This document shows, piece after piece, positions 1 through 6,500 of a DNA stretch of 11,544 nucleotides. The first letter of the stretch is position 1. Every line of letters begins with the position of its first letter. This DNA is from a virus. Taxonomy: Monodnaviria > Loebvirae > Hofneiviricota > Faserviricetes > Tubulavirales > Inoviridae. The position numbers and the translations under genes are program-made. The stretch lies in the IMG/VR virus record IMGVR_UViG_2541047905_000001; one strand, 5' to 3'. Below the pieces are notes generated by a model. The model was given only the letters and a program-made list of their open reading frames with translations, had not been told where the DNA came from and searched no databases.

Positions 1-327
1 TCATTTTTTCCAGAGGCGGTCGAACTCCGCCTTCGCAAAATAAGCGGAAGCCTGGCGAAGGATATCGTTACTGCGGCGCAGTTCACGATTTTCACGTTCC
101 AGCTCTTTCAGACGCTGACGTTCAGCGGTGGTGAGCCCTCCATCACCGCCCCCGGTATCCCGCTCATGCTGGCGAACCCAGACACGCAGAGTCTCCGGCG
201 TACAGCCAATCTTTGGAGCAATGGAACAAATTGTCGCCCATTGTGAGTCATATTCGCCCTGACTTTCCAGAACCATACGGACTGCCCGTTGACGGACTTC
301 AGGGGAAAAACGAGTATTTTTAGTCAT
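1..327 (-). CDS. IS3-family transposase OrfA (IS629/IS1203-like), 108 aa, HTH DNA-binding subunit
   Basis: Translation [61 protein letters not shown]...[36 protein letters not shown] matches my memory of IS629 OrfA. A leucine-zipper-like C-terminus and an A-rich slippery run near the 3-prime end (AAAAAAT near positions 4-10, minus strand) fit a programmed frameshift into orfB. Confidence 0.9.
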
Positions 328-742: not shown

Positions 743-775
743 GGTGCGCATAATGTACGACTCGTTATGTTGAAA
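743..775 (+). other. dif-like XerC/XerD recombination site with an expanded central region; candidate prophage (IMEX) junction
   Basis: Seen: GGTGCGCATAA-TGTACGACTCG-TTATGTTGAAA. From memory, E. coli dif is GGTGCGCATAA-TGTATA-TTATGTTAAAT. The XerC arm is identical (11/11), the first four central bases match, the XerD arm matches 9/11, and the central region is 11 bp instead of 6. Confidence 0.55.
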
Positions 776-842: not shown

Positions 843-1109
843 TTAGTCCTGCTGTCGACCAGGGGCATCATAACCTTGTCTTTTTCGCCATGCTTTTTCA
901 CCTCTCTCCCATATAACCGTGTCATTAGTTAGCTTTCTAAATTTCGCTAATACTTTTTTATCAATGGATAAATTTCCATTAGCATTCAAATATACGAAAG
1001 TATCGCCAAATAACTCTTTTATTTTATATACAACAGTTTCTTGATATAGCCAGTTTGTGTTTTCCAGCTCTGATTTCATCCATTGTGCAACATCATCTAC
1101 AGTAGCCAT
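843..1109 (-). CDS. Hypothetical 88-aa protein; downstream partner of the nuclease-like gene in an AT-rich two-gene cassette
   Basis: ORF with an AGGA-containing RBS (AAAAGGACATAT then ATG) 10 bp after the stop of the upstream gene, which indicates co-transcription. Soluble, charged, basic C-terminus (KAWRKRQGYDAPGRQQD). Family not recognised. Confidence 0.6.
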   Translation of the reverse strand: MATVDDVAQWMKSELENTNWLYQETVVYKIKELFGDTFVYLNANGNLSIDKKVLAKFRKLTNDTVIWERGEKAWRKRQGYDAPGRQQD

Positions 1110-1119
1110 ATATGTCCTT

Positions 1120-1914
1120 TTATTTTGGTGAGATTATTACTTTTACCGAAATTGAATTTGTACAACGCTCAAGGTCATTCTCCACACCAATTGGATTGGC
1201 AATTCTACCTTCAGGGTCATATACAAAACACACTAAAGTTTCGCAATCAGGATGCGTTTGATAATGAGCTATATCAACAATTAATTGCTCACCAACTTCT
1301 TTTTGCTTGAGATTTTTTCTCGTTTTCTTTAACTCGATAATGATTTTTTCATTCTTTAACAAGAAGTCAACTCGTGTTGAAGATCCTGCATAGCTTGGCG
1401 TATATTCTTCTGGTCTGACATCCTCGAAATGAATCTTCAAAAGAGCATGAAATAAATCCTGAACGTCATATTCGTCATTTATTTCAATGGTTTGTCTATT
1501 ATCGTGTCGTTGCTGTAGCTGTCTTGCAACCTTATGAAATTGATGGCAAATTAGTTCAACAAGAGCTACGGGATCATTTTTTGTCTCTATGAAATTCCCG
1601 TCAATTCCATATTCTTCAATCTCAGCAATCATAGACGTAAGAAGAGAATGTGCTTCATCTAAACCACTACAAAATGCGTTATCGAAAACATAATCTGGTG
1701 TATCACCAACAAATGCCATTAAAGAGTATCGAATTGAGCCAAATTCTTTTTTGTGATCTGACTCTTCACCAAATATTTTTGATATGGCGGTCTTAGTGTT
1801 TCTTTGCCATAAGTTAAAACTTGGGTTATTTCCTGTACTCCTTCGTTCATTTTGTATTGCTGGGATTTGCTCCCGTTGTCTTTTTAATATCTCGATAGCT
1901 TTTTCTGGCTTCAT
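1120..1914 (-). CDS. Hypothetical 264-aa protein with an alpha-helical N-terminal region and a C-terminal PD-(D/E)xK-type nuclease-like motif; candidate defence or abortive-infection effector
   Basis: Strong RBS (GAGGAAAGATA then ATG at 1914). The translation contains the motif order typical of the restriction-endonuclease-like fold: ...IHFEDVRPEE...STRVDFLLKNEKIIIELKKT... (candidate D183, E194, K196) followed by Q210...Y218. The coding sequence is conspicuously AT-rich compared with the flanking IS and phage DNA. The fold assignment is inferred from the motif, not from a search. Confidence 0.6.
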   Translation of the reverse strand: MKPEKAIEILKRQREQIPAIQNERRSTGNNPSFNLWQRNTKTAISKIFGEESDHKKEFGSIRYSLMAFVGDTPDYVFDNAFCSGLDEAHSLLTSMIAEIEEYGIDGNFIETKNDPVALVELICHQFHKVARQLQQRHDNRQTIEINDEYDVQDLFHALLKIHFEDVRPEEYTPSYAGSSTRVDFLLKNEKIIIELKKTRKNLKQKEVGEQLIVDIAHYQTHPDCETLVCFVYDPEGRIANPIGVENDLERCTNSISVKVIISPK

Positions 1915-1980
1915 TATCTTTCCTCAAGACTAAAAAATAACCACTCTGAACTTCACCGCTGATATATGGAGCAAAATTGC

Positions 1981-2403
1981 TTACCAATAATAAGAGTTTC
2001 TTCTGTGCCACCAATAAAGCAGACCGTATCCGACGATAAGAATACCGAAAAACATTAACGACATTCCCCAGCCAGTTCCGTACCACGAAACCATATCATC
2101 GAAAACCAACCCACCCATTTCACGTACTCCGGCAGCTTCCTTAAGAATTGGTTTGAATACCGGAATCAGAAGGGCGATCGCCAGTGGAGCACCCCAGCGA
2201 ACAAGGCCTGTTTCCATTTTGATCCCGAAAAAGATCCCCGCCCCAACAACAAGCAGCCAGACTATCAGGCCAGGCGCAGTTTCCAGTGCTGTTTGCCATT
2301 CAACATCGAAAGTTTTCATTAGCCAGGCAACAACTGCCAGACAGAAAGCAAATACGCCGACGACAACCAGTTCAACGCCGCTTGTTTCGTTATTTCTACT
2401 CAT
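1981..2403 (-). CDS. Hypothetical multi-pass inner-membrane protein, 140 aa
   Basis: Translation shows several hydrophobic segments (VELVVVGVFAFCLAVVAWL, GLIVWLLVVGAGIFFGI, APLAIALLIPVF, MSLMFFGILIVGYGLLYWW). Same strand as, and upstream of, the nuclease-like gene with a 66-bp gap. RBS AAAAGGA precedes the ATG. Confidence 0.6.
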   Translation of the reverse strand: MSRNNETSGVELVVVGVFAFCLAVVAWLMKTFDVEWQTALETAPGLIVWLLVVGAGIFFGIKMETGLVRWGAPLAIALLIPVFKPILKEAAGVREMGGLVFDDMVSWYGTGWGMSLMFFGILIVGYGLLYWWHRRNSYYW

Positions 2404-2445
2404 CCTTTTGATCCTTTTTTACTGTTCAAAATTCGCACAATAAAG

Positions 2446-2474
2446 AACGTGCAGTGTTGGTAATACTGCACGTT
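2446..2474. repeat. 10-bp perfect inverted repeat with 9-nt loop between the regulator and membrane-protein genes; candidate terminator or operator
   Basis: Seen: AACGTGCAGT (2446-2455), loop GTTGGTAAT, ACTGCACGTT (2465-2474). On the minus strand it is followed by CTTTATTG. Confidence 0.4.
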
Positions 2475-2502
2475 TGTCTCATTCCTGAGACTGTTAATCC
2501 TT

Positions 2503-2949
2503 TTACTCTTCTCCAGACACCGCTTTTTTCATAAACATTTTAGTACTGTAAGTGTATGAACTTAATGCAGAAACCTGCCTTGCGAGTGCCAGAATATCTT
2601 GTTTTTCCAGTGTCCTGATGTTCCACACGATGAAATTATGTGCGTTAGTGGTTTCTTCATCAGTATATCCATCCGCAGAAGTGATTAGCTTCCGCTCGGT
2701 AGCTTCTTCTTTAACATCAAGAGCATAGCCATAAGCTAAGGTGTTTAAGTCTGCACCCGTAATTTTAGCTATCTGAATGATGTCACTGAATTTAGGTTCA
2801 GTTTTGCCGGACGCTATCCTGACCAGCGTACTCACGCTAATGCCAGTCTTCTCGGCCAGTTCTTCATAAGTCGAGTGTTCCAGAATTACCTTTTTGATAC
2901 GTTCTGCTCTCTGTTTGTCCGCCATAACTTCATGCTCATTGTTGCCCAT
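2503..2949 (-). CDS. XRE-family helix-turn-helix transcriptional regulator, 148 aa; probable prophage repressor transcribed divergently from gII
   Basis: HTH signature in the N-terminal third (STYEELAEKTGISVSTLVRIASGKTEPKFSDIIQIAKITGADLNTLAYG). Its position and divergent orientation relative to the replication gene resemble repressors of filamentous prophages such as RstR of CTXphi. GGAG lies 9 nt upstream of the ATG at 2949; an alternative start at Met9 is possible. Confidence 0.75.
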   Translation of the reverse strand: MGNNEHEVMADKQRAERIKKVILEHSTYEELAEKTGISVSTLVRIASGKTEPKFSDIIQIAKITGADLNTLAYGYALDVKEEATERKLITSADGYTDEETTNAHNFIVWNIRTLEKQDILALARQVSALSSYTYSTKMFMKKAVSGEE

Positions 2950-3120
2950 CTACTTGGCTCCATCTTAACAGTGGTTTTTCAATAGTTAGATTTGATGCTC
3001 ATTTCTGACAATTTAAACATTGCAAATGTATTGACTGTCAGATCTGAGCATATTACATTGTGACCATTCAATCTGCTCACAAATGACTATTGACACATAT
3101 TTTGATGGGTGTGACTACTT
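2950..3120. promoter_or_regulatory. Divergent intergenic control region between the repressor and gII; probably holds the promoters, operators and the plus-strand origin
   Basis: 171-bp AT-rich spacer between divergent start codons. It contains TTGACT (3031-3036), several TGAC-containing half-sites, and a motif resembling the Ff gene-II nick site at 2964-2989. Exact -10/-35 assignments are not secure. Confidence 0.4.
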
Positions 3121-3711
3121 ATGATCGACTGGTTTACCGGAATCCTGCCTTGCACACACCGACCGTTACCGGCTGGTAGTGTCGTCAGCGTCGATGCTGA
3201 CGGTGCAGTGGAGTGGGAAACAGTAAAACGGTTGACCGTTCGCGGTTCGCATGAGTCCACAATGAAAGTAAGGTCTGTTGGATCTGATGGTGAAGGTAGG
3301 GCAACACATCTCTACATTGACGGTAATCCATCAAAGTTTTTGCAAGGTCACTCTGTTATCGGTTCCGACGATTTGCAAGGGTTGGTGTTAACAGCTTACG
3401 CCAGAATATTGGCATTACTGCATATTCCTCATGATCTACCATCCTATCGGCAGGTCATGGAAGGGCAATTTAAGATCTCGCGCATCGATATCAATTACAT
3501 GTATTCATTGTCAACATTAGAAAATGTCCGCGCATGGTTATATGCCGCAGAATTTAAAGCTAAAACTCGCCACGGTCGCGCCTGTGGTAAAGGTGGCACT
3601 GTTTACTTAGGGAAAAACTCCCGTCGTTGGAGCCTGAAATTTTATTCAAAATATGATGAGCATACATCTGGCAAAAAAGGGCACCAGATGGCAGTAATGC
3701 CAGTCAGTTAA
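3121..3711 (+). pseudogene. Filamentous-phage replication initiation protein (Ff gII-like), N-terminal fragment, interrupted by IS4 after codon 191
   Basis: Translation starts MID... and contains KFLQGHSVIGSDDL and ISRIDINY, matching the M13 pII segments KVLQGHNVFGTTDL and ISRIDATF as I recall them. Native coding sequence ends at 3694; the last five codons (VMPVS, stop) are read from IS4 sequence. Confidence 0.9.
3682..3694. repeat. Left copy of the 13-bp target-site duplication (CACCAGATGGCAG) made by IS4 insertion
   Basis: Identical 13-mer abuts both ends of the IS at 3682-3694 and 5121-5133. Confidence 0.85.
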
Positions 3712-5120
3712 GCAACTGACTGGCTCTTTTTCGGGGCTGTGGGGTATTTCCAGGGCCTCTCCTTTACCACTCTCGGGAAGGCCCTTTCCCTTCTTGTCGG
3801 TAATTTCACAAGTTGTCCCATACTTGCAAGATCGCGCATCAGCTCCGGTATACGTCCCGGTGAAGCGCCCTGCAATGTCATCAGCATTCTCATCACCATT
3901 CCGCATGATTCTGAGAAACTCAGTTGATTCGGCCAGTAACCTTTCAGATGTTCCGCCATTTTAATCATCTGATATCTCACCAGATTATAAGCCAGTAAGA
4001 CACCCCACAGCTCTTGCTCCACAAGCTCCGGCTTTTTACTTCTCAGCGTCAGCCTGCTCCGTTGCATCGTCTGTTTTATCTCCCTGTATCCCAGTTCGAT
4101 TTCCCAGCGATGACTGTACAGATCCCCCATTTCTCCTCCGGGGAAGCGCATGGCGTCCGTCATCGACGTCAGCAGATGGCAGACTTTTCCTTTGCGCGTC
4201 ACGGTCAGCAGGCGGGCAGTCACTTCATTTCCCAGTCCCGGCCACTTTTTTCGTGCCTGCGGGCTGGTTTTCAGCTTCACCAGATGATCGCCTTTACCCA
4301 GTTTTCTGATCTCTTCATATTGCGCTCCCTTTCTGAGAGGTATCATCCAGTGGCGGTGTTCTCCCGCCAGGCTCCAGGCATTTAACAGTCCCAGTGAGTA
4401 ATAACCTTTATCCATTAACGTCAGAGTGTTATCGCCGGTTTGTTCTATAAGTTGCTCAGCAAGCTCATTTTCGCTGTTCTTCATCGTGCCGAAGGCTGCA
4501 GCCGTCAGCAGATGGCTGGTCAGTTCCATCTGGCAGACCATTTTGACCTGCGGGTAGAGCGCCGGGTTCCCGGCATGTGTCTGGCGGGGGAAGGCTGCAT
4601 CGTTCTCTGGTGTATCCGGTGTGCGCCAGAACACACCATCGATGGCCAGCAGGGTCAGGCCGCACCAGTGCGGATGCGGCGTGGCGTTATGCCAGAGCTG
4701 CGCTGTTTTCGTGAACACGCGGCGGACAGCCTCACTTCCCAGGCGCTGGCGGGCCTGAATAACGGCACTGGGGGCAACGAAGGGGCGATTGCCCGGCAGC
4801 ATGATGTCCAGGCGATTCACAATCTGGTGAAGAGGTTCTTTACGCTCAAGCGCCATGCCAACAATACACCAGACCATCATTTCGAGGGGAAGACGGCGCT
4901 TGCGTAGCGTTACAGTACCTGATTCGGCAAGGCAACGAGAGATGAGTTCGGGGTCGAGGTAATCCCCCAGAGAAGTCAGTGGGTTACGCAGAGAATCGTA
5001 ACGGGATACCAGATCAAGAGCCTGTCCAATGTGCATAAAAAAATCCGGAAACAAGTGAGCGTTTCCGGATTCTTACACAGCCACTGGATCGGTCAACTGA
5101 TCCTTAACTGATCGGCATTA
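3695..5120 (-). mobile_element. Complete IS4 insertion sequence (1426 bp) inserted in gII
   Basis: 18-bp terminal inverted repeats TAATGCCAGTCAGTTAAG (3695-3712) and the reverse complement of 5103-5120 (TAATGCCGATCAGTTAAG), 16/18 identical. Single transposase ORF. The 1426-bp length matches my memory of IS4. Flanked by the 13-bp direct repeat. Confidence 0.95.
3708..5036 (-). CDS. insG: IS4 transposase, 442 aa, DDE family
   Basis: Translation from [70 protein letters not shown]... to ...[13 protein letters not shown] matches my memory of E. coli IS4 InsG. The ORF track begins six codons earlier (MFPDFF); I take Met7 as the true start. Confidence 0.95.
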
Positions 5121-5133
5121 CACCAGATGGCAG
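5121..5133. repeat. Right copy of the 13-bp IS4 target-site duplication
   Basis: CACCAGATGGCAG, identical to 3682-3694. Confidence 0.85.
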
Positions 5134-5297
5134 ACGAATTCGTTAAAGCTGGTTTACTGGACTGGTCAAAAGATAAATTACGCATTGAATTAACATTAAG
5201 AACAACTGAATTAATTGATTTGAATCTTACGCTTGGTAATAGCTGGAATATTGAGACGCCCAATAAATTATTCTCTGACTATGTAGGGAGAATAGAA

Positions 5298-5612
5298 ATG
5301 AATCAAAACACTATATTAACTGATGAAAAAATAATTAATCTCCCAAGAAAAATACAGTCTACATATTTATTGTGGAAGCAGGGCGCGAACATGAAAGAGA
5401 TGTTACCGAAACCTACATTCTACCGACACCGTAAAGAATTACTTTCTTTCGGAATAGATATTAACTTTTATTGTGAGTCACCGGATTCTAATAACGTTGT
5501 TCCGTTGGTTCGTACTCTTGAAGCCAAACCAGCCAAAATTCCATCATGGGTTTATGAGAAAGGTTTAATTTTCGATTATAACCGTATTTCACATGCCAGT
5601 AACTGGCATTAA
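5298..5612 (+). CDS. Possible gX-like protein (in-frame internal restart within the gII C-terminal region), 104 aa
   Basis: In-frame ATG at 5298 preceded by a strong Shine-Dalgarno sequence (GGGAGAA at 5286-5292). In Ff phages pX is the C-terminal roughly 111 aa of pII made from an internal start. Inferred by analogy. Confidence 0.4.
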   Translation: MNQNTILTDEKIINLPRKIQSTYLLWKQGANMKEMLPKPTFYRHRKELLSFGIDINFYCESPDSNNVVPLVRTLEAKPAKIPSWVYEKGLIFDYNRISHASNWH

Positions 5613-5623
5613 AGGAGAGTGAT

Positions 5624-5941
5624 ATGTCTAATTATGGTCTTTTTGTAAAAGGTAAAATGCTTGGTGCTCGCCAGCGTAATAAGGTCAATGGTCAGGGATA
5701 CTATAATGAAATTGGTGTTGGCTTAGAGATTCCTGATGGTTTTGGCGGCACTAAGCAAGACCAGATTATTATTCGTGTATCTCAGGCTCTTGTTAATGCC
5801 GGTGTAATGAATCAGGCAAATAATTTTATCGGTAAGTTAGTCCAGATACCTGTATATGTTCGCGTCTGGTCAATGGAGGGGAGGGAAGGAGTAACTTATA
5901 ACATTTCATCAGATGGCGGCATTACTGAAATAAAAGGCTGA
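5624..5941 (+). CDS. Probable ssDNA-binding protein (gV-like), 105 aa
   Basis: Small soluble ORF immediately after gII with an AGGAG RBS, at the position gV occupies in Ff-type genomes. Assigned by synteny and size, not by recognisable sequence similarity. Confidence 0.5.
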   Translation: MSNYGLFVKGKMLGARQRNKVNGQGYYNEIGVGLEIPDGFGGTKQDQIIIRVSQALVNAGVMNQANNFIGKLVQIPVYVRVWSMEGREGVTYNISSDGGITEIKG

Positions 5942-6229: not shown

Positions 6230-6463
6230 ATGTTTAAAAAAATCGTTAGTTTTCTGGCTGTACCTGCATTAATGGCTGTTTCTGGCGCGACTTTCGCTGC
6301 AGAAGGAGCGGCATCAAGTGGTGTTGATTTATCGCCGCTGACGAACAGCATTGATTTCAGTACAGTTCTGGTTGCGATTATGGCCGTTGCTGCTTCACTG
6401 GTAACACTTTATGCCGGTGTCGCTGGCGTTCGCTGGGTATTGCGTACCGTTAAATCCGCATAA
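6230..6463 (+). CDS. Major coat protein precursor (gVIII-like), 77 aa
   Basis: Classic architecture: signal peptide MFKKIVSFLAVPALMAVSGATFA, acidic mature N-terminus AEGAASSGVD, a hydrophobic helix, and a basic C-terminus RWVLRTVKSA. GGAG RBS 8 nt upstream. Confidence 0.8.
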   Translation: MFKKIVSFLAVPALMAVSGATFAAEGAASSGVDLSPLTNSIDFSTVLVAIMAVAASLVTLYAGVAGVRWVLRTVKSA

Positions 6464-6476
6464 ATTCATTATTCAT

Positions 6477-6500
6477 GGGCGATGCAATATCGCCCGTTTT
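6477..6500 (+). terminator. Rho-independent terminator after the major coat gene
   Basis: Hairpin GGGCGAT (6477-6483), loop GCAAT, ATCGCCC (6489-6495), followed by GTTTT. Ff phages have a strong terminator just after gVIII. Confidence 0.6.

Follow-up and report, generated by a model that had tools for sequence, protein, structure and literature searches.

Interruption of the replication gene gII by IS4 in a dif-integrated filamentous prophage of Escherichia coli

The filamentous phages of the CUS-1/YpfPhi group have a shared core and variable accessory open reading frames (ORFs) adjacent to attL; phages of the YpfPhi type superinfect and form tandem arrays, and a resident YpfPhi gives partial protection against superinfection (PMC4266046). 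With UPPhi, YpfPhi has only the gII/gV module in common (PMC7307601). The gene II protein (pII) of the Ff phages uses Tyr197 as the nucleophile which becomes covalently linked to the nicked strand (PMC5405960), and for YpfPhi the work of Chouikha et al. (2010), as summarised in PMC4266046, states that disruption of the replication gene YPO2274 abolished phage particle production. The target duplications of the IS4 subgroup of insertion sequences (IS) are direct repeats of 10-13 bp (PMC2266710). The stretch of DNA analysed here (11,544 bp, IMG/VR virus record IMGVR_UViG_2541047905_000001, in the following called the window) contains a dif-integrated single-copy inovirus prophage of the CUS-1/YpfPhi family, adjoining hipA in an E. 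coli VR50-like background, whose replication gene gII is split by IS4.

IS4 and the two halves of gII

The element within gII is a canonical IS4 of 1426 bp with the transposase on the minus strand; a scripted check and an independent repeat finder returned identical direct and inverted repeats around it (coordinates in Table 1). Within the window there are exactly two copies of the 13-mer CACCAGATGGCAG, both directly abutting IS4 as the original prediction had described, and the empty site of intact gII homologues has a single copy (GGCAAAAAAGGGCACCAGATGGCAGACGAATTC). About two repeated pairs of 13-mers are expected by chance anywhere in 11.5 kb, and the chance of one lying exactly at both IS4 termini is about 4^-13; the pair is not a chance event. 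With 13 bp the duplication falls into the range of the IS4 subgroup, and the termini, starting with TAATG, conform to the subgroup pattern -AATR- (PMC2266710). Element, position and length had been predicted correctly, but the 18-bp inverted repeat is imperfect rather than perfect: the ends, TAATGCCAGTCAGTTAAG and, as reverse complement, TAATGCCGATCAGTTAAG, are identical at 16 of 18 positions.

Copies of IS4 in three other E. coli genomes (L004, L005, L007) show no difference to this one over 1426 bp and a fourth shows one; all four are annotated as IS4 or insG. The transposase matches Pfam Nterm_IS4 (E 3e-33) and DDE_Tnp_1 (E 3e-31) and scores 299.5 bits against the NCBIfam equivalog transpos_IS4_1, the cut-off of which is 115. 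Its intact ORF and the intact ends of the element suggest that this copy may be competent for transposition. Near-copies of the gII target occur within IS4 itself, at 4170-4184 and 4506-4520: CAGCAGATGGCAGAC agrees with the right flank at 14 of 15 positions (chance about 0.002 by a post-hoc estimate) and CAGCAGATGGCTGGT is a weaker match.

If IS4 and one copy of the 13-mer are removed, positions 3121-3694 joined to 5134-5612 form 1053 nt with one ORF of 350 amino acids (aa), the contiguous gene of about this size that had been proposed. The restored protein matches Pfam Phage_CRI (PF05144) with residues 1-231 (E 1e-73) and G2P_X_C (PF05155) with residues 253-336 (E 4e-34), and it covers positions 1-406 of the 407 positions of TIGR01629 (rep_II_X) with 259.6 bits, the two fragments occupying parts of this model that do not overlap (Table 1). 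The N-terminal G2P and the C-terminal G2P/X domains thus belong to one polypeptide when restored and are parted by IS4 in the window; a weak Rep_trans match (residues 148-216) crosses the insertion point. Uninterrupted, annotated gII, covering at least 80% of the length, exists in 104 of 5426 complete E. coli genomes, with a nucleotide identity of 99.7-99.9% among the best matches listed, and the restored protein shows no difference (100% identity) to the one encoded by gene II in both tandem YpfPhi copies of Yersinia pestis NCTC5923. In this comparison both fragments align to a single gene.

The nearest protein of a characterised phage is pII of I2-2 (57.8% identity over 98% of the length), which was reached by protein search only, as a DNA search of the phage collection with restored gII gave no match; a search of PDB chain sequences gave no meaningful match. 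By its sequence the assignment of restored gII to the II/X replication family is secure. What had been called a clear similarity to Ff pII holds for family membership, but the similarity itself is remote, with 22.9% identity to M13 pII over 327 aligned positions in a pairwise comparison (E 2e-8).

Within the window, the 5' fragment runs to a stop codon inside the IS4 inverted repeat and leaves a stump of 196 aa with the tail VMPVS. For the 3' fragment gene callers give a 161-aa ORF starting at an ATG within the right duplication (5127). Since no Shine-Dalgarno sequence precedes it, this ATG is unlikely to serve as a functional start. In public records the stump is filed as "hypothetical protein" and the 161-aa ORF as a complete II/X family replication protein; both are misfiled halves of one IS4-split gII, and the main importance of the finding lies in annotation and strain biology.

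Two independent NCBI assemblies, GCA_000460555.1 (E. coli UMEA 3174-1) and GCA_045573325.1, contain the window over its full length at 100% identity, the match in the latter being a 5.09-Mb contig, and two Logan contigs (L012, L017) cover IS4 completely, together with both of its junctions. In a public assembly collection the 196-aa stump, identical down to the VMPVS tail, is present in 82 index blocks; it was seen on 49 contigs, which include gut metagenomes and SRA assemblies. Around the insertion site the IS4-bearing contigs show an identity of 99.9% or more. None of the 5426 complete E. coli genomes has the IS4-interrupted gII; IS4 itself is present in about 2700 of them. The 161-aa ORF was also considered as a marker of the allele and was rejected: it occurs in 201 index blocks and on 120 contigs, one of them the Y. 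pestis CO92 record CP009973, and most of these records have a gII split by frameshifts without any IS, an A6 run lying just upstream of the split. In several of them other phage genes are in pieces as well, which suggests indel errors of the assembly or other decay. Diagnostic of the IS4 allele is only the 196-aa stump with the VMPVS tail.

Replication and the nested gene gX

The insertion follows codon 191, and the stump is missing the final ~40 residues of the N-terminal G2P domain together with all of the C-terminal (pX) domain. It keeps Tyr175 (SLKFYSKY), which in the alignment corresponds to Tyr197 of Ff/M13 pII and is conserved in I2-2. By analogy with the disruption of YPO2274, as far as it is summarised in PMC4266046, the prophage of this strain is very likely incapable of autonomous rolling-circle replication, in agreement with the original prediction, and production of infectious virions is expected to be lost.

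A likely plus-strand origin, intact in the window, is the hairpin at 2445-2481, the best candidate for this function. It is 92% identical to the intergenic region of I2-2 over 38 nt (E 5e-7) and stands upstream of gII, typically at a distance of a few hundred bp, in every homologue locus reaching that far, including relatives of 85-87% identity; it is annotated nowhere. Together with its flank it folds at -25.4 kcal/mol, and its shape resembles the nick-site hairpin of Ff. With this candidate origin preserved, pII provided in trans could act on the element.

Downstream of IS4 the in-frame ATG at 5298, which had been proposed as the start of a gX-like gene with a strong Shine-Dalgarno sequence, is Met247 of pII with AGGGAG 7 nt upstream. 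Met247 aligns exactly with the annotated start of gene X in I2-2 (residue 247) and is three residues off the aligned pX start of M13 (Met300); the G2P_X_C domain begins six residues after it. In homologues of 85-100% identity both the ATG and GGGAG are conserved, and I2-2 retains the ATG as well. It is thus very probable that phages of this group have a nested gX; its translation signals survive IS4. For the suggestion that a pX-like product could still be made, these signals are in favour, but transcription finds no such support: just inside IS4 a terminator-like hairpin faces transcripts from the gII promoter, and consensus scans of 5121-5298 found no good sigma70 promoter, the best candidate matching 8 of 12 positions with a 15-nt spacer. 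Transcription of gX is uncertain for these two reasons, IS4 is likely to be polar on gX, gV and the coat genes, and it is doubtful that pX is actually made.

The following course of events explains the locus with high probability. A canonical IS4 transposed into gII codons 188-192, duplicating 13 bp, and gII now encodes a 196-aa stump with 191 authentic residues including the putative nicking residue Tyr175. Lacking a functional initiator, the prophage would no longer start rolling-circle replication from its own origin. With the candidate origin hairpin, the repressor gene, gV, the coat genes, gI and gIV intact, the element would be defective and in principle mobilisable by a related pII acting in trans. 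Transcripts that start at the gII promoter probably end within IS4, so that the output of pX, pV and coat genes would likely be reduced rather than preserved.

Several points weigh against this account. The stump retains the putative catalytic tyrosine and may have residual nicking activity, and a second, intact gII, on an episomal replicative form or in a UPPhi-like phage, could exist elsewhere in the source genome. Promoters and terminators were called by consensus scans, and a weak promoter, or one of a type other than sigma70, may lie upstream of gX; in the Ff phages a promoter is located inside gene II upstream of gene X. A simple single-lineage history is furthermore complicated by a metagenome contig (L011) with intact hipA and gII::IS4, set against E. 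coli VR50 with hipA::IS629 and intact gII.

Carriers such as UMEA 3174-1 and its relatives should not produce virions of the CUS-1/YpfPhi type unaided. Modest effects on fitness during infection have been associated with CUS-1 and YpfPhi, and the replication competence of a given prophage copy can matter when strain phenotypes are interpreted.

History of the allele and competing explanations

The case is one of ordinary prophage decay, a known IS having entered a gene of a known prophage, and the understanding of IS4 and of inovirus replication is unchanged by it. Public assemblies commonly contain this prophage in other states of decay, in which gII is frameshifted or structural genes are deleted. 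The near-identity to intact copies indicates that the IS4 insertion is recent.

At the start of the window hipA is itself disrupted by the end of an IS3-family element (IS629-like orfA, 1-327, minus strand), the 3' remnant of hipA lying at 382-666. The same hipA::IS629 junction and left arm are found, with no mismatch over 3694 bp, in E. coli VR50, whose gII is intact. Two intact gII copies, 3865 bp apart, belong to a rearranged partial tandem in VR50 (NZ_CP011134.1, 1684652-1691847), where a truncated gIII-like pseudogene is fused near the second repressor copy. Three combinations were thus seen directly, namely hipA+/gII::IS4 (on L011), hipA::IS629/gII+ and hipA::IS629/gII::IS4, and the fourth, hipA+/gII+, presumably also exists. 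To account for them recombination, loss of tandem copies, recurrent insertion or chimeric assembly is needed. A gut metagenome scaffold (L010) was considered as an independent insertion in a diverged background and was rejected: it has 12 mismatches to the window, all of them at 1984-2117 at a module boundary, and is identical at 2118-3747. Such clustering points to a mosaic or a chimera and is no evidence of recurrence.

Among the alternatives, the one with most in its favour, yet still an unlikely one, regards the prophage as a helper-dependent satellite whose replication and packaging would rely on pII from a relative that is co-resident or superinfects the cell. The candidate origin hairpin and all genes other than gII are intact, including those for packaging and structure, and the gII::IS4 allele stands beside both intact and IS-disrupted hipA. 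On the scaffold L010 the gII::IS4 prophage is immediately preceded by a UPPhi-like prophage (L010:938-1990, L010:10001-10591) that has an intact pII of 86% identity and shares the origin hairpin, a layout that is possibly a helper arrangement or else a chimeric scaffold. The gII/gV module shared by UPPhi and YpfPhi (PMC7307601) and the superinfection and tandem arrays known for phages of the YpfPhi type (PMC4266046) would also fit. Against a satellite speaks that no episomal genome bearing IS4 was seen, the sole circular record found (L001) having an intact gII, and that the interrupted allele is absent from the same complete E. coli genomes which include 104 with the intact gene. The extra 1.4 kb and the polarity of IS4 on gV to gVIII would moreover handicap such an element, and L010, given the position of its differences at the module boundary, may be chimeric.

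Improbable, too, is a repeated origin of the same insertion at a gII site preferred by IS4. Four other IS4 sites in unrelated genes (L004-L007) share an A-run, 3-4 nt, a duplication opening with C(A/C)(C/G)C and a T-rich stretch downstream; the gII site resembles them in having an A-run, 3 nt and then the duplicated block. The duplications at the sites compared (L004-L007 and window 3670-3694) measure 12-13 bp, those of the other four being 12 bp long, and megablast matches to other IS4 copies extend about 20 nt into the flanks. The shared pattern fits the semi-specific target of IS4, which in the older literature is given as AAA-N20-TTT. The combinations of hipA and gII, three seen and one presumed, would also be accommodated by recurrence, but loss of copies from a tandem array or recombination accounts for all four equally well. 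All IS4-bearing contigs are nearly identical near the site, which is free of IS4 in each of the 104 genomes with intact gII, although about half of the complete genomes carry the element; for this reason gII is not a high-frequency hot spot of IS4.

The chances are poorer still for the view that the disrupted prophage is retained as useful, bearing no cost of virions and acting through pX and pV, the repressor or accessory genes, for example by interference. In Ff, pX and pV restrain replication, which counts in its favour, as do the conserved gX start and the persistence of the allele in many samples (the 82 index blocks above) with no further decay of other genes. For the Ff phages translational control is cited in PMC5405960. 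The partial protection by a resident YpfPhi against superinfection points in the same direction (PMC4266046). However, with an insertion as recent as the near-identity to intact copies implies, the lack of further decay says little; the terminator in IS4 and the missing promoter speak against good expression of pX and pV, and the frequent frameshifted or deleted forms of the prophage fit neutral decay.

Taken as one proposition, that the gII::IS4 prophage persists or spreads as a satellite of phages of the YpfPhi, CUS-1 or UPPhi types, or interferes through residual pX, pV or repressor, is unlikely. If it were a satellite, its helpers would be dif-integrating inoviruses which share the gII/gV/origin module, and semi-specific targeting by IS4 might make gII a recurrent point of domestication. 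An element intact but for gII might be mobilised by related inoviruses or interfere with them, the UPPhi-like phage on L010 being an example. That assembly error or a chimeric join produced the insertion or the 13-mer duplication has a negligible probability: IS copies are places where short-read assemblies frequently break or are joined wrongly, and most stump-carrying contigs are shorter than 5 kb and end at IS4, but both junctions recur in the two independent assemblies, one of them with the 5.09-Mb contig, and in the metagenome and SRA contigs, L012 and L017 crossing the complete element, and the lengths of duplication and element are those expected of IS4.

The prophage at dif and its relation to known phages

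Table 1 Features of the prophage and its IS4 insertion in the window
Feature	Position	Strand	Remarks
Hybrid dif-like site (attL) GGTGCGCATAATGTACGACTCGTTATGT	743-770	+	20/28 positions as in E. coli dif, first 15 bases identical
Accessory module	843-2403	-	DUF6953 protein, 264-aa REase-like protein, 140-aa membrane protein
Putative plus-strand origin nick hairpin AACGTGCAGT-GTTGGTAAT-ACTGCACGTT	2445-2481	+	Intact; conserved with I2-2
Divergent helix-turn-helix repressor gene (YPO2273/RstR-like)	2503-2949	-	Pfam HTH_3 and Phage_CI_repr; position of YPO2273 according to PMC4266046
gII 5' fragment	3121-3711	+	Codons 1-191 and 5 IS4-encoded residues (VMPVS); 196 aa; TIGR01629 positions 1-200
Left target-site duplication, 13 bp, CACCAGATGGCAG	3682-3694		gII codons 188-192
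IS4	3695-5120	-	1426 bp; inverted repeats 3695-3712 and 5103-5120, 16/18
Terminator-like hairpin	3699-3724	+	11-bp stem followed by TCTTTTT; just inside IS4
IS4 transposase gene	3708-5036	-	442 aa in public records; mechanical ORF to TTG at 5054
Right target-site duplication, 13 bp	5121-5133		Second exact copy of CACCAGATGGCAG
gII 3' fragment	5134-5612	+	Codons 192-350 and stop; TIGR01629 positions 224-406
gX-like nested gene	5285-5612	+	Shine-Dalgarno AGGGAG 5285-5290, ATG 5298, 104 aa
gV, single-stranded DNA-binding protein	5624-5941	+	Intact; Pfam Putative_G5P, E 1e-52; directly after gII
Two small membrane/coat genes	incl. 6230-6463 (Coat_B-like)		After gV
gIII-like gene	ends 8240
gVI-like DUF2523 gene			Between gIII-like and Zot/pI genes
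Zot/pI gene	8544-9569
Secretin/pIV gene	9569-10813
Two small ORFs			After secretin/pIV gene

The hybrid dif-like site lies directly downstream of the hipA remnant, and the true dif follows 143 bp past the end of the window (window-equivalent 11687; L008:18567 in the source genome). With the hybrid site on the left and the true dif on the right the prophage is thus present as a single copy. The same hybrid site forms the junction between tandem copies in E. coli GN02323 (L002:6622). According to the CTXPhi paradigm, a single copy between hybrid and true dif by itself limits virion production.

In GN02323 the same phage forms a 9504-bp tandem repeat, to which the prophage of the window is 99.94% identical. 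Apart from IS4 there are four single-nucleotide polymorphisms and two single-base intergenic indels; since all ORFs keep their annotated lengths and the differences are so few, IS4 is the only disruptive lesion. A 9565-bp circular record of E. coli TUM14759 (NZ_CP128883.1, L001), deposited as an "untypable plasmid", is a genome of this phage with intact gII and presumably represents its replicative form.

The 264-aa protein of the accessory module has a REase_DpnII-MboI domain (Pfam E 7e-59) and matches PADLOC Aga_Helical-REase (E 1e-34); the module may be defence-related cargo of a filamentous phage. At 6475-6497, just behind the major coat gene (6230-6463), lies a terminator-like hairpin that has a T-run. 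It mirrors the arrangement in the Ff phages, which have a strong terminator after gVIII. An Rfam scan of the entire window gave no match.

Regarding known systems, the element in gII differs from IS4 of E. coli (insG of K-12; IS4 family, IS4 subgroup) in nothing but its location. The defective and satellite dif elements of Vibrio cholerae, for example those of CTXPhi, have in common with the prophage the integration at dif via the XerCD recombinases of the host. Virion production of the CTXPhi type depends on the array structure and on a replication protein in cis or trans. However, the replication protein of CTXPhi is RstA, which belongs to another family, and no IS is involved there; for the prophage described here helper dependence would follow by inference only.

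With Ff (M13/f1/fd) the locus shares the Pfam and TIGRFAM family of pII, the alignment of the catalytic tyrosine, the in-frame nested pX and a gV directly after gII, but Ff pII is longer (410 aa versus 350 aa) and the Ff origin lies between gIV and gII, whereas the candidate origin here stands upstream of the divergent repressor gene. The phage I2-2 (Lineavirus) has the same position of the gene X start and the 38-nt intergenic hairpin in nearly the same form, and the rest of its genome shows no similarity to the window at the DNA level; unlike the prophage it is non-integrating and has neither a dif site nor a repressor module.

A very close relative is YpfPhi of Y. pestis, with an identical pII, the same gene order and a core of 99.6-99.7% identity. 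From position 2423 onward the window matches the YpfPhi loci of Y. pestis NCTC5923 with 99.66% over 4748 bp and 99.6% over 1244 bp, figures which leave out the middle of the assembly module, and 842-2422 has no counterpart in these loci. The comparison with the group was made against the YpfPhi loci, CUS-1 (E. coli O18:K1:H7) being included by the description of the group; YpfPhi, CUS-1 and the prophage of the window are all integrated at dif, the left end being a hybrid site and the right end an intact dif (PMC4266046). Unlike YpfPhi, the prophage has another accessory module, is present as a single copy instead of a tandem, and carries a gII that is split by IS4.

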